Positions 58,806 through 60,440 of a stretch of 64,000 nucleotides of DNA are shown here, in pieces (the stretch's first letter is position 1; every line of letters begins with the position of its first letter). Below the pieces are notes generated by a model. That model saw only the letters and a list, made by a program, of their open reading frames with translations. It had not been told where the DNA came from and made no database searches. A program made the translations under genes and the position numbers. Location of the stretch: assembly GCA_963696295.1 (NCBI GenBank), contig CAVOJR010000001.1, positions 1,824,001 through 1,888,000 on the forward strand. Direction: 5' to 3'. The DNA comes from an uncultured Chlamydiae bacterium (GTDB taxonomy: Bacteria; Chlamydiota; Chlamydiia; Chlamydiales; JAJFMB01).

Positions 58806-59576
58806 ATGGAATCAACATCCTTCTTTAGTGAACAAAGCCCCAATTTTTCTTTTTTTGAAAATTTTTCCCCTGAGCTAAGGCATCCCCCTAAAATAGTCCA
58901 ATATTCTCTCTTTGAGGGCAGCCCCTTTGCCGACCTATTGACCGGTTCTCCGCTGGCTTTTGGCCAACGCTCTATTGTTCCCCTGATTCCGGCAACGCTC
59001 CCATCTCCCAAAGAAACCGAATTCCACTTTATCCCCCTTAGAGATTCTCCCCTTGCGAGTCCGGTTGTAAGCGGACCTGCTTTATCGCTGACTACCCCTT
59101 CCTCCTCTTCAAGCAGCGGGACCCCTTCCTTTTTGCCGGACAGCCAATCCTCTTCATCCCTTTCAAACGGCACCGGAAACCGATCTTCGCCTATAGGAGT
59201 AATCAGAGAGTTCTTTGCAGAGACGGAAACAACAGATACATTCCTTGATGAACTGGTTGAGAAACTTCCCCATCTCAAAAAAGGGGAAATAAGCGCAGCA
59301 AAAACCATTCTTTGCTGGCAACGCCTCTCATGCAAAAGAAAATCTTGCTCTTATGCTCACGACCCCGATGAATTAGCCCCCAGCCGTGTTAATAGGAAAT
59401 ACAAGCAGCAGAATTGCAAACGAGAGAAAAACAATCAAACATGTCCTTATCAATATAAGTGCGACTTTCTCCATAAAGATGATACCATCCTATGGAGTGG
59501 AAATAGTTTTATTGCAATGCAGGAAAACCTTATTTATCGAAAAGGATTTATTGATGAATCACAGGATAAAAGATGA
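58806..59576 (+). CDS. TTP/ZFP36-like tandem CCCH zinc-finger protein 1 (Ser/Pro-rich N-terminus)
   Basis: AKTILC-x5-C-x4-C-x3-H, 18-aa linker ending KYKQQN, then C-x8-C-x5-C-x3-H. Confidence 0.85.
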   Translation: MESTSFFSEQSPNFSFFENFSPELRHPPKIVQYSLFEGSPFADLLTGSPLAFGQRSIVPLIPATLPSPKETEFHFIPLRDSPLASPVVSGPALSLTTPSSSSSSGTPSFLPDSQSSSSLSNGTGNRSSPIGVIREFFAETETTDTFLDELVEKLPHLKKGEISAAKTILCWQRLSCKRKSCSYAHDPDELAPSRVNRKYKQQNCKREKNNQTCPYQYKCDFLHKDDTILWSGNSFIAMQENLIYRKGFIDESQDKR

Positions 59577-60097
59577 GCTCATATTATTACACCCATTATA
59601 TAACCTCTCCTCCTTCTTACCAACCAATCCCTCACACACCTGATAGGGGTACTAGAGCTTTGAACTCTCCCTCTCCATCGTCCCCGGGGACAACTAAATC
59701 GACTCCCGAAAGGAAACAATTTGTCGCGTCAATTTTGAGCTTCTTAGCGACGCCTCCCTCCCCTGAAAGAAAAAGCCCGGGGCCCTCGTACCTAAATCCG
59801 AAAGGAAAAACGACCTTTTGCCATCTGCATCTTTGGAATAGGTGCAGGAGAGAAATCTGCGACTTTGCCCACGACGAATCTGAGCTCAAGGCCGTTCCTG
59901 TGCCCAATAACTACAAAACGGCTTTTTGCAGGCAGGAAAGCGCCTTTGGAACTTGTAACTATAATTTTAATTGCAATTACATCCATCGGCAAGACTGGAT
60001 CGAAAGATACGCCGATATCGTTGTGGTCAGAACCCCGCACCCTTTTTTTCCTTCTCTATTGGTCATCTATAAAATAGGTAAAATCAGCAGTGTATAA
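59573..60097 (+). CDS. TTP/ZFP36-like tandem CCCH zinc-finger protein 2
   Basis: GKTTFC-x7-C-x4-C-x3-H, 18-aa linker ending NYKTAF, then C-x8-C-x5-C-x3-H; ATGA overlap with gene 1. Confidence 0.87.
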   Translation: MSSYYYTHYITSPPSYQPIPHTPDRGTRALNSPSPSSPGTTKSTPERKQFVASILSFLATPPSPERKSPGPSYLNPKGKTTFCHLHLWNRCRREICDFAHDESELKAVPVPNNYKTAFCRQESAFGTCNYNFNCNYIHRQDWIERYADIVVVRTPHPFFPSLLVIYKIGKISSV

Positions 60098-60440
60098 TGT
60101 ACAAAACTTGCACAATACCGCCTTATGTTATTGGTGGTTTACGGGGGAATGCAAATTAACGAATTGCACTTTTGCCCATGACCCAAACCGCCTCATTCCT
60201 GTGATCGTGCATCCCCTATTTAAAACGGTAGATTGCAGCGCAGAAATTGAAAGCCCGGGAAGCTGCCAGTACAAATTTCGCTGCCATTATATCCACCCGA
60301 ATGATTATATAGAAAGTCGAGACTCTTTTATCAGAGTAAGCACTCTTGACCCCCTTACCCATGATTTGATCCTTTATCGCATTGGCATCAAGTCAGACAC
60401 GCCGATCAAAGGGGGAACCCCGAGTCAAGGGCTTCATTAA
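60090..60440 (+). CDS. TTP/ZFP36-like tandem CCCH zinc-finger protein 3
   Basis: HNTALC-x7-C-x4-C-x3-H, 18-aa linker ending HPLFKTVD, then C-x9-C-x5-C-x3-H; GTG start overlaps the gene 2 stop. Confidence 0.82.
   Translation: MYNVQNLHNTALCYWWFTGECKLTNCTFAHDPNRLIPVIVHPLFKTVDCSAEIESPGSCQYKFRCHYIHPNDYIESRDSFIRVSTLDPLTHDLILYRIGIKSDTPIKGGTPSQGLH

Follow-up and report, generated by a model that had tools for sequence, protein, structure and literature searches.

The window analysed here is a stretch of 64,000 nt of chlamydial DNA. Near its end lie three consecutive overlapping genes on the plus strand (the trio), divergently transcribed from a gene for an OTU-type cysteine protease. The features, with positions in the window, are as follows.

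57814-58656, minus strand: OTU-type cysteine protease gene (PF02338, E 6e-6, 27.2 bits against a cutoff of 23.3).
58657-58805, no strand: AT-rich divergent intergenic region of 149 nt between the OTU gene (minus strand) and gene 1 (plus strand).
58742-58771, plus strand, and 58713-58685, minus strand: promoter-like sites (consensus matches only).
58806-59576, plus strand: gene 1, 256 aa, ATG start (from the ORF list), with a Ser/Pro/Thr-rich N-terminal extension (residues 1-163) and a short C-terminal extension whose last residues are LIYRKG; apparent orthologue P0145.
59313-59360, plus strand: gene 1 finger 1 (residues 170-185), C-x5-C-x4-C-x3-H.
59415-59474, plus strand: gene 1 finger 2 (residues 204-223), C-x8-C-x5-C-x3-H, after an 18-residue linker.
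59573-60097, plus strand: gene 2, 174 aa, ATG start; the AlphaFold model shows a helix at residues 45-59, preceded by a low-confidence stretch (residues 1-44); P0029 and P0035 are apparent orthologues.
59819-59872, plus strand: gene 2 finger 1, C-x7-C-x4-C-x3-H.
59927-59986, plus strand: gene 2 finger 2, C-x8-C-x5-C-x3-H, after an 18-residue linker.
59996-60085, plus strand: gene 2 C-terminal beta-sheet (residues 142-171).
60090-60440, plus strand: gene 3, 116 aa, GTG start, close to the bare domain; apparent orthologue P0004 (63% identity).
60126-60179, plus strand: gene 3 finger 1, C-x7-C-x4-C-x3-H.
60234-60296, plus strand: gene 3 finger 2, C-x9-C-x5-C-x3-H, after an 18-residue linker.
60303-60392, plus strand: gene 3 beta-sheet (residues 72-101).

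Genes 1 and 2 are joined by a 4-nt ATGA overlap and genes 2 and 3 overlap by 8 nt. An AGGA/AGGT ribosome-binding-like site is found 5' of each overlapping start (genes 2 and 3). The genes are intron-less and translationally coupled. A preliminary description of this DNA reported three overlapping plus-strand ORFs, each encoding a pair of CCCH fingers with exactly 18 residues between them, and both the coordinates and the patterns were reproduced. The sequences also bear out the lead-ins it quoted, the [FY]AH that closes finger 1 and the spacing of finger 2, C-x8/9-C-x5-C-x3-H, where genes 1 and 2 have x8 and gene 3 has x9. It missed that finger 1 is shortened to C-x5/7-C-x4-C-x3-H and so departs from the canonical C-x8-C-x5 spacing. 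In the TTP family each finger is preceded by a (R/K)YKTELC-type lead-in, also visible in the PDB alignments. The lead-ins of genes 1, 2 and 3 are AAKTIL, KGKTTF and LHNTAL before finger 1, and KYKQQN, NYKTAF and LFKTVD before finger 2. The K-T is mostly retained, and the lead-in aromatic is retained before finger 2 only.

Each protein was searched with phmmer against 177,635 PDB sequences. The best match for all three was 9y10 (E 6.7e-10 for gene 3, 5.1e-8 for gene 2 and 3.5e-6 for gene 1). TTP (1m9o) was matched at E 1.5e-6, 1.2e-6 and 4.1e-4 by genes 3, 2 and 1, and TIS11d (1rgo) at 4.7e-6, 3.6e-7 and 1.1e-3 in the same order. The 9Y10/9Y13 entry is a 'C3H1-type domain-containing protein' of 70 residues, and the alignment spans both fingers and the linker. 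Unlike the trio, it has C-x8-C-x5-C-x3-H in both fingers and no C-terminal extension. The AlphaFold model of gene 3 has a pLDDT of 88.6 as a whole, rising to about 96 in residues 10-100; that of gene 2 reaches 95-97 over residues 79-174, with its five models at 77.7-79.7. The top Foldseek match of the model is the TIS11d-RNA complex 1rgo (prob 0.98, 68 columns, 37% identity). The same structure heads the VIA search (Z 4.4, rmsd 4.2, 68 of 70 residues; next row Z 3.2). The TTP/ZFP36-type tandem-finger architecture proposed in the preliminary description is thus borne out by the phmmer matches to solved tandem zinc fingers (TZFs) and by the fold match, and comparison of the predicted structure with the TIS11d-RNA complex, which it also proposed, placed 1rgo first in both fold searches. 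Its HMMER search with zf-CCCH (PF00642) gave only a sub-threshold match: gene 3 alone was matched, at 16.0 bits against a gathering threshold of 20.5, and no trio gene reached that threshold. The tandem model PF25543 (zf-CCCH_tandem) matched gene 1 only, at 13.6 bits against 24. Tis11B_N and other TTP-flank families gave no match in the Pfam search at E up to 1. The family is missed by standard Pfam thresholds and would therefore have been overlooked in domain-based surveys of chlamydial eukaryote-like proteins. Taken as sequence comparison, the searches support homology to the eukaryotic TTP/ZFP36/TIS11 tandem CCCH domain.

A family-specific C-terminal beta-sheet, which the earlier reading had missed, is present in every member and takes in a linker strand in the predicted models. 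It is three-stranded and about 35 residues long. In the trio proteins the 33-47 residues that follow finger 2, up to the C-terminus, form this sheet. In the models, which predict a compact fold with confidence, it is paired with a strand from the 18-residue linker and holds both fingers together as one compact unit. A sheet packed on the linker in this predicted way sets the chlamydial proteins apart from the solved TZFs. Among 48,161 chains the extension had no match above Z 3.2. Glyoxalase/bleomycin-resistance folds were considered as relatives and set aside, as they scored only Z 2-3.2 and look like a common beta arrangement. A complex prediction for the gene 2 domain with gene 3 scored 0.00 against a mark of 0.32, which has no bearing either way on binding. 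A sheet that seems to lock both fingers could inform the design of rigid sequence-specific binders of single-stranded RNA.

Across 21 members, with a mean column identity of 22%, C13, C21, C26, H30, K45, C49, C65 and H69 are invariant. The linker has 18 residues in all 19 members that the regular expression parsed (2 of the 21 were unparsed). In TIS11d the two UAUU half-sites are kept in register by a linker of this length. Domains of the TTP/ZFP36/TIS11 family bind single-stranded AU-rich RNA, with high affinity for the UUAUUUAUU type. The chlamydial proteins resemble TIS11d/ZFP36L2 and TTP/ZFP36 (1RGO, 1M9O) in having CCCH fingers in pairs with a linker of exactly 18 residues, lead-ins that are mostly of the K-T-x-x-C type, [FY]AH closing finger 1, and a finger 2 of C-x8/9-C-x5-C-x3-H with both stacking aromatics. 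They differ in finger 1 (C-x5/7-C-x4-C-x3-H), where an Arg usually stands in place of the TIS11d Tyr. They also stop at the beta-sheet and lack the CCR4-NOT-recruiting C-terminal tail of TTP, and unlike TTP genes their genes are bacterial, intron-less and operonic. According to a review (PMC1635273), two aromatics in each TIS11d finger stack on RNA bases, a Tyr from the C2-C3 loop and a Phe from the C3-H loop, and small backbone changes can shift specificity unpredictably. Both stacking aromatics are kept in finger 2 of all six copies in the source genome. In finger 1 the C3-H aromatic is present in 18 of 19 parsed members and in five of the six copies, and the Tyr position has no aromatic, an absence that the earlier reading missed. 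In the sister genus there is a finger 2 without the second Cys; a loop His is aligned there instead.

The family is lineage-specific to chlamydiae and has six copies in the source genome. These were found with the family profile among 40,951 six-frame frames, with no other match up to E 10. A single-finger regular expression picked up only five further frames with a length of 80 aa or more, and no tandem was among them. Three of the six are dispersed paralogues that the preliminary description had overlooked. A sister-genus genome has its own trio, and one 23.8-kb metagenomic contig most likely carries orthologues of all three genes; together with the six paralogues, these agree with the earlier claim of a tandemly amplified family. 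Relatives occur in about 12 metagenomic clusters, and some lie on a 61-kb metagenomic contig. The profile matched 10 of 400 genomes of the phylum including the source genome, and the proteins in the other nine are more canonical TZF proteins. It had no match in the closed 2.1-Mb genome from the same family, nor in 29 genomes of 1.0-1.2 Mb. PF00642 matched 15 of the 400 genomes and none of 14 control prokaryotes; in a whole-genome search it had no match in the source genome. CCCH fingers are therefore sporadic in other chlamydial families too, which the earlier reading had also overlooked. Those other chlamydial CCCH/TZF loci (L009-L017) resemble the trio in their small size, tandem CCCH fingers and low-complexity N-termini, and L010 and L011 share YKTE lead-ins and 18-residue linkers (counted on the sequences). 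Their finger spacing differs, being mostly canonical or otherwise variant, and they do not share the beta-sheet, as profile matches end at positions 63-80 of 98. A single-protein scan covered 185,579 species genomes (the source genome's own records were possibly excluded); it gave only two matches, both partial (residues 81-113, 42% identity) and in Pseudomonadota MAGs, which were taken as spurious. Thirty-one metagenome loci matching P0035 were also rejected: they match only its first ~60 residues, a dispersed repeat, and 0 of 31 has a TZF. The nearest Atlas clusters are all eukaryotic, at scores below 0.9, which are leads only. The preliminary description knew of no bacterial system of this kind, and our literature search likewise gave no published description of such a chlamydial TZF family.

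A domain tree was built from 103 rows and 70 columns, 75 of the rows being non-family library proteins. A near-full TZF stretch was present in 94 of 152 library proteins; those without one were left out, as were P0109 and P0141. Only 10 of 100 inner branches were starred. Monophyly was not rejected by the AU test, either for the family (p 0.879) or for all chlamydial rows together (p-AU 0.81), and L009-L017 scatter among the library rows. Names and taxa are lacking for most outgroup rows (one of ten looked up is a copepod protein), and with 70 columns the tree is compatible with one or several acquisitions. Horizontal acquisition of the domain is plausible. Compared with the genome's long ORFs, the trio ranks at the 4th-20th percentile for GC3, which is low and in range. 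Recent import of foreign DNA was rejected as the sole explanation, since GC3 and codon-usage scores are low yet within the genome range.

The N-termini vary widely. The Ser+Pro+Thr fraction of the N-terminal extension is 0.38 in gene 1 and 0.49 in gene 2, compared with 0.159 in the genome's long frames, and the gene 2 model has a pLDDT of 49-58 across residues 1-44. The Ser/Pro-rich disordered N-termini that had been described for genes 1 and 2 are therefore seen as Ser+Pro+Thr enrichment in both and as low pLDDT in gene 2. Across the family these low-complexity N-termini diverge fast and the copy number varies. Gene 3, P0004 and P0036 have just 4-6 residues ahead of the first lead-in, so a disordered N-terminus is not a general secretion signal of the family. 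The near-absent extension of gene 3, missed earlier, suits an effector reading less well. A type III secretion (T3SS) ATPase, the sole T3SS component searched for, is present in the genome (TIGR02546, 631 bits against a cutoff of 604.75, C1:620248-621504).

We give about an even chance to the reading that the trio belongs to a chlamydial family built on a TTP-type domain, which is delivered into the host, binds AU-rich host mRNA and alters its stability. Judged from sequence, the domain would bind zinc and single-stranded RNA rich in U and A, with finger 2 as a canonical UAUU-type reader. The specificity of finger 1 would be altered, given a loop shortened by one residue and an Arg in most cases at the place of the stacking Tyr. 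The proteins would be delivered to the cytosol of a protist host, probably via the type III system, by their variable disordered N-termini. TTP recruits the deadenylase CCR4-NOT through its C-terminal tail. The trio proteins have no room for such a tail and would therefore occupy host AU-rich elements as competitors of host TZF proteins, and this competition may change host mRNA stability. Alternatively, other partners could be brought in via short N-terminal motifs, e.g., the gene 2 helix at residues 45-59. Several features appear effector-like: a domain that is otherwise eukaryotic, a patchy and paralogue-rich distribution and Ser/Pro/Thr-rich N-terminal extensions. The T3SS ATPase and the OTU and Bles03-like neighbours may be listed with them. 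On the other side stand the noncanonical spacing of finger 1 without its Tyr, the scores below the Pfam zf-CCCH thresholds, the very short N-termini of gene 3, P0004 and P0036, and a downstream ORF in which Pfam showed no chaperone-like family. Chlamydiae also use eukaryote-type domains internally, and the TopA-SWIB fusion in the same window, which we take to work inside the bacterium, is one example.

To our knowledge, bacterial effectors that read host RNA sequence directly are rare. An amplified and conserved bacterial TZF family would make it directly testable whether intracellular bacteria manipulate host mRNA stability via AU-rich elements. TTP-type tandem zinc fingers are regarded as eukaryotic tools that direct mRNA decay to specific motifs (PMC5031192). 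The giant viruses of protists Marseillevirus LCMAC201 and Tetraselmis virus 1, themselves intracellular parasites, have TTP-like tandem fingers. Their proteins rank first in the BFVD fold search (prob 0.99 and 0.92; 73-81 columns at 29-30% identity), with weak E-values (5e-3 and 1.5e-2). Giant-virus TZF proteins are not known to have a beta-sheet extension. Tentatively, and with more doubt than belief, we consider a fuller version in which these would be the first bacterial TTP-type readers of AU-rich elements: injected, with a pre-organised tandem finger that the beta-sheet clamps and keeps rigid on AU-rich elements of protist mRNAs, without deadenylase recruitment, rewiring host mRNA decay, and with six paralogues whose divergent first fingers read different motifs. 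If true, intracellular bacteria and giant viruses of protists would have converged in capturing the same host mRNA-decay adaptor.

The family might instead be a domesticated eukaryote-type RNA binder that stays unsecreted inside the chlamydial cell, acting for example on AU-rich bacterial transcripts or small RNAs in the developmental cycle. We regard this as rather unlikely, though the evidence from homology and constraint is equal to that for the effector reading. The short members without an N-terminal extension fit it. Translational coupling in one operon is ordinary for cytoplasmic proteins, the trio's composition (GC3 included) is near that of the genome, and TopA-SWIB, also in the window, is a precedent of a bacterial housekeeping protein that uses a eukaryote-type domain. 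However, the distribution is patchy and accessory (10 of 400 genomes, absent from the closed 2.1-Mb genome and from all 29 small ones). The variable copy number, the fast-diverging N-termini and the eukaryote-directed neighbours (OTU protease and Bles03-like protein) also argue against it.

It is improbable that the TZF-plus-beta-sheet is a repurposed scaffold which binds protein or DNA and not AU-rich RNA, whether secreted or not. The shortened C2-C3 loop of finger 1 without its stacking Tyr, the sister-genus finger 2 that lacks the second Cys and the sub-threshold Pfam CCCH scores would be expected of such a scaffold, and the new sheet joined to both fingers could make a new interaction surface. 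Against this, finger 2 keeps its [YF]K-T lead-in, canonical spacing and both aromatics in all six genome copies, the linker length is invariant in the parsed members, and the sole notable fold match is an RNA-bound structure.

The source genome is 3.43 Mb in 2 contigs (97.4% completeness, 1.5% contamination), and the window lies on the contig of 3.30 Mb. An rRNA operon, the TopA-SWIB fusion (1426.9 bits against a cutoff of 868) and a Pom porin share the window with the trio, the last two upstream of it, so contamination is very unlikely; an MgtA-type ATPase lies downstream. The chlamydial chromosomal origin assumed at the outset is well founded on the two-contig assembly and these markers. Eukaryotic contamination, misassembly or chance frames, which the otherwise eukaryotic nature of the tandem CCCH domain and the failure to find public runs with most of the window might suggest, can be dismissed given the large contig with bacterial flanks on both sides, intron-less and coupled genes, five further family loci on the same chromosome, the sister-genus trio and identical short contigs in soil metagenomes. 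The last are contigs of 150-330 nt from two runs of two studies, identical to parts of the window including the 5' part of gene 1; most of the trio is uncovered by them. No public sequencing run with most of the window was found, and the matches included no RNA run. A neighbouring 1053-aa protein had no PDB match below E 0.15 and no NCBIfam family, and its Pfam rows were all sub-threshold. No chaperone-like family was seen in the downstream ORF in Pfam at E up to 1. A Bles03-like protein adjoins one of the paralogues. The OTU neighbour of the trio is likely a deubiquitinase by its domain match and is context only with respect to the trio. The region 57700-61900 contains 16 promoter-like sites compared with a shuffle mean of 6.4, all of them consensus matches only.

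Three overlapping genes on the + strand of the window encode proteins with two CCCH fingers each:

58806-59576, + strand: gene 1, 256 aa; finger 1 C-x5-C-x4-C-x3-H, linker 18, finger 2 C-x8-C-x5-C-x3-H
59573-60097, + strand: gene 2, 174 aa; finger 1 C-x7-C-x4-C-x3-H, linker 18, finger 2 C-x8-C-x5-C-x3-H
60090-60440, + strand: gene 3, 116 aa, GTG start; finger 1 C-x7-C-x4-C-x3-H, linker 18, finger 2 C-x9-C-x5-C-x3-H

The ORF listing and regex search reproduced the coordinates and finger 2 pattern of the preliminary description, including the 18-residue linker, and its lead-in sequences were all right. 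The three proteins share 31-34% pairwise identity. Translational coupling of the trio is predicted because the genes overlap (ATGA between genes 1 and 2, 8 nt between genes 2 and 3) and AGGA and AGGT are found 6-10 nt upstream of the gene 2 and gene 3 starts.

The proposed TTP/ZFP36-type architecture was searched in two ways. Pfam CCCH models stayed under threshold for the trio (best PF00642 score 16.0 bits versus 20.5; PF25543 13.6 versus 24), but phmmer against all PDB sequences found TTP-family tandem fingers clearly in all three proteins. For genes 3, 2 and 1 the E values are 6.7e-10, 5.1e-8 and 3.5e-6 to 9y10, 1.5e-6, 1.2e-6 and 4.1e-4 to 1m9o (tristetraprolin), and 4.7e-6, 3.6e-7 and 1.1e-3 to 1rgo (TIS11d), with alignments spanning finger 1, linker and finger 2. 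The AlphaFold2 model of gene 3, built from a 21-sequence family alignment, has a mean pLDDT of 88.6 (about 96 for residues 10-100). The TIS11d-RNA complex was its top match, both in Foldseek against PDB (probability 0.98, E 1.7e-2, 68 columns, 37% identity) and in a second independent structure alignment against representatives (Z 4.4, rmsd 4.2, 68/70 residues; next-best row Z 3.2). Based on these phmmer matches and the predicted fold, it was concluded that the trio domain is homologous to the TTP-type tandem finger and that a chance pattern is excluded.

The fingers depart from those of TTP mainly in finger 1, where the loop that links the second Cys to the third has four residues instead of five. 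According to a review (PMC1635273), each TIS11d finger reads UAUU mainly through main-chain contacts, and its bases are stacked by one Tyr from the C2-C3 loop and one Phe from the C3-H loop; the review cautions that small backbone changes are able to shift specificity. In finger 2 both stacking aromatics are present in all six copies of this genome. In finger 1, 18/19 parsed members have the C3-H aromatic; at the Tyr position, unlike in TIS11d, no aromatic is present and the residue is usually Arg. The 18-residue linker is found in 19/19 parsed members, and across 21 aligned members (mean column identity 22%) the invariant positions are seven zinc ligands and one Lys. The zinc ligands and linker length are preserved, and finger 2 carries the full RNA-stacking set.

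All family members have about 35 extra residues after finger 2. These are modelled as three beta-strands (residues 72-77, 80-86 and 93-101 in gene 3; 142-146, 149-155 and 163-171 in gene 2), joined by a short linker strand (residues 38-40 and 108-110, respectively). The sheet had no convincing match in the structure alignment against representatives. TTP docks on CCR4-NOT through its C-terminal tail; in contrast, the family proteins lack such a tail since they stop at the beta-sheet. The N-termini are 4 to 212 residues long and rich in Ser, Pro and Thr. The disordered Ser/Pro-rich N-termini described earlier for genes 1 and 2 agree with Ser+Pro+Thr fractions of 0.38 and 0.49 (genome-wide 0.159) and with low pLDDT in the gene 2 model (49-58 for residues 1-44). 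A single helix (residues 45-59, pLDDT 70-77) follows in gene 2 and is kept in two relatives.

The genome holds six members of this conserved, amplified, chromosomal family, in which a TTP-homologous tandem finger is combined with a new beta-sheet, and no further member was found up to E 10. The dispersed copies on the large contig C1 are:

572974-573900: 308 aa
2316025-2316456: 143 aa
2716330-2716755: 141 aa

The last copy adjoins a gene matching Bles03 (PF08939, a family presumably known from eukaryotes; E 3.9e-5, 24.1 bits versus cutoff 23.1) at about C1 2715631-2716317 (locus L006 784-1470, - strand). The same taxonomic family includes a genome from a different genus (G001) with its own tandem trio (L007 96-1785, contig C149); the tandem amplification proposed earlier is seen in both genomes. 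In the G001 trio finger 1 is canonical (C-x8-C-x5-C-x3-H); in finger 2 the second Cys is missing and a His of the loop aligns there, which suggests a C-H-C-H zinc site. G001 may have more copies because the first gene overruns the contig end. The family profile found no member in a closed 2.1-Mb genome of the same taxonomic family.

Searching 1.84 billion representatives exhaustively with the profile gave 8,934 matches (E up to 1e-3), headed by multi-finger proteins, the single named one from a copepod. Twelve further clusters, all unnamed or labelled 'hypothetical', align to the whole profile in one stretch, beta-sheet included. Genes 1, 2 and 3 have apparent orthologues in the metagenomic clusters P0145, P0029 and P0004, respectively; these most likely lie on one contig because the longest contig is 23,774 bases for each.

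Within the phylum the profile matches 10/400 genomes, the studied one included (one further genome was left unscored): 8/69 in family f5, 1/46 in f32 and 0/29 in a family of 1.0-1.2-Mb genomes. PF00642 is present in 15/400 phylum genomes and 0/14 control prokaryotes. In other chlamydial CCCH proteins the alignment covers the fingers only, ending at profile positions 63-80 of 98. Several of them come close to the canonical form and have YKTE lead-ins, and two (L010, L011) have 18-residue linkers by manual count. The nearest ESM-Atlas clusters, as leads only, are eukaryotic CCCH families in every case (scores 0.84-0.88), and among viral proteins the best fold matches, both weak, are to CCCH proteins from a Marseillevirus and from Tetraselmis virus 1. 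The domain tree is too short for resolving origins; it is compatible with the family forming one clade (p-AU 0.879) and with all chlamydial rows forming one (p-AU 0.81). The RNA-binding domain itself is already known; its occurrence in a bacterial lineage, the domain architecture and the altered finger 1 are new. In agreement with the preliminary description, no account of a bacterial or chlamydial TTP-type tandem finger was found in a full-text literature search that mostly left subscription journals and supplementary domain tables outside its scope; a bare zf-CCCH entry could exist where eukaryote-like domains of chlamydiae or legionellae are tabulated.

The genome measures 3.43 Mb (97.4% complete, 1.5% contaminated) in two contigs of 3.30 Mb (47.1% GC) and 135 kb (42.9% GC); many relatives have 1.0-1.2 Mb. 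The window (C1:1824001-1888000) includes:

17659-22688: complete rRNA operon
52284-53144: Protochlamydia-type outer membrane protein (porin)
57814-58656, - strand: OTU cysteine-protease domain protein, 280 aa, divergent from gene 1 (E 6e-6, above Pfam cutoff)

It also encodes a TopA-SWIB fusion (1426.9 bits versus cutoff 868), an adenosylcobalamin-dependent ribonucleotide reductase, CopA, ParB and, immediately downstream of the trio, an MgtA-type ATPase. By their family names, the fusion and the porin are hallmarks of chlamydiae. The six family genes have GC3 values of 0.35-0.48 (4th-20th percentile among 1,364 long ORFs with a mean of 0.559 and an sd of 0.099), low yet in range. Eukaryotic contamination or misassembly is very unlikely because of this chlamydial setting and the GC3 values. 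The 5' part of gene 1 and other pieces of the stretch recur, with fragmentary cover, as identical short contigs in two soil-metagenome runs from two studies.

The domain probably binds nucleic acid of some kind; its predicted ligands are zinc and single-stranded RNA rich in U/A, with a UAUU-type reader in finger 2 and altered specificity in finger 1. Our best explanation, to which we give about an even chance, is that the proteins are secreted into a protist host, where they would occupy AU-rich elements, recruit no deadenylase and compete with host tandem-finger proteins. The eukaryotic nature of the domain, its patchy, paralogue-rich distribution, the disordered N-termini and a T3SS ATPase encoded in the genome point to secretion, as do the eukaryote-directed neighbours (the OTU protein, likely of deubiquitinase type, and the Bles03-like protein). 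A further pointer to secretion is the over-representation of an aromatic doublet among the 50 N-terminal residues (12/18 members with extensions; shuffles average 6.8 and 12/2,000 reach the observed count), a signal overstated by kinship. The less likely rival reading, RNA binders working inside the bacterium, is favoured by gene 3 and its relatives, which have hardly any N-terminal extension, and by TopA-SWIB, a precedent for a eukaryote-type domain working inside the bacterium.

Other features of the window are:

3356-4273, - strand: 305-aa ORF adjoining the group II intron domain
4515-4591, - strand: group II intron catalytic domain (Rfam RF00029, 52 bits versus gathering score 40)
44593-45969, + strand: 458-aa protein, eukaryote-type Ser/Thr kinase in the C-terminal half (Pfam Pkinase, E 5e-17), no family for the N-terminal 260 residues
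54638-57799: 1053-aa protein just upstream of the OTU gene
60382-60801, + strand: putative 139-aa ORF (about 98 aa from an internal ATG) overlapping the gene 3 end, no Pfam or NCBIfam family
61006-61357: tandem repeat, 126 bp x 2.8, 96% matches, between the trio and the MgtA-type ATPase gene

The 1053-aa protein, with no Pfam, NCBIfam or PDB relative, consists of duplicated halves (residues 60-370 versus 579-932, 36.5% identity, E 6e-61) separated by a 45-nt x 3 repeat (55812-55947) encoding a charged Glu/Lys/Ala-rich stretch. Both strands of the 126-bp repeat carry an open frame (ORFs of 125 aa and 142 aa), and fragments identical to it recur in the two soil-metagenome runs.

A dispersed repeat about 170 nt long makes up the initial ~60 residues of P0035, a metagenomic family member. 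This repeat is found at 31 metagenome loci (L025-L055) as short intergenic frames and also in-frame in 1552-aa and 1001-aa ORFs. The studied genome has 27 tblastn matches (e.g., C1 1687586-1687756, 1024245-1024418 and 1369050-1369214), none of them inside the window. The repeat may be a palindromic miniature mobile element, as many matches lie on both strands at one place.
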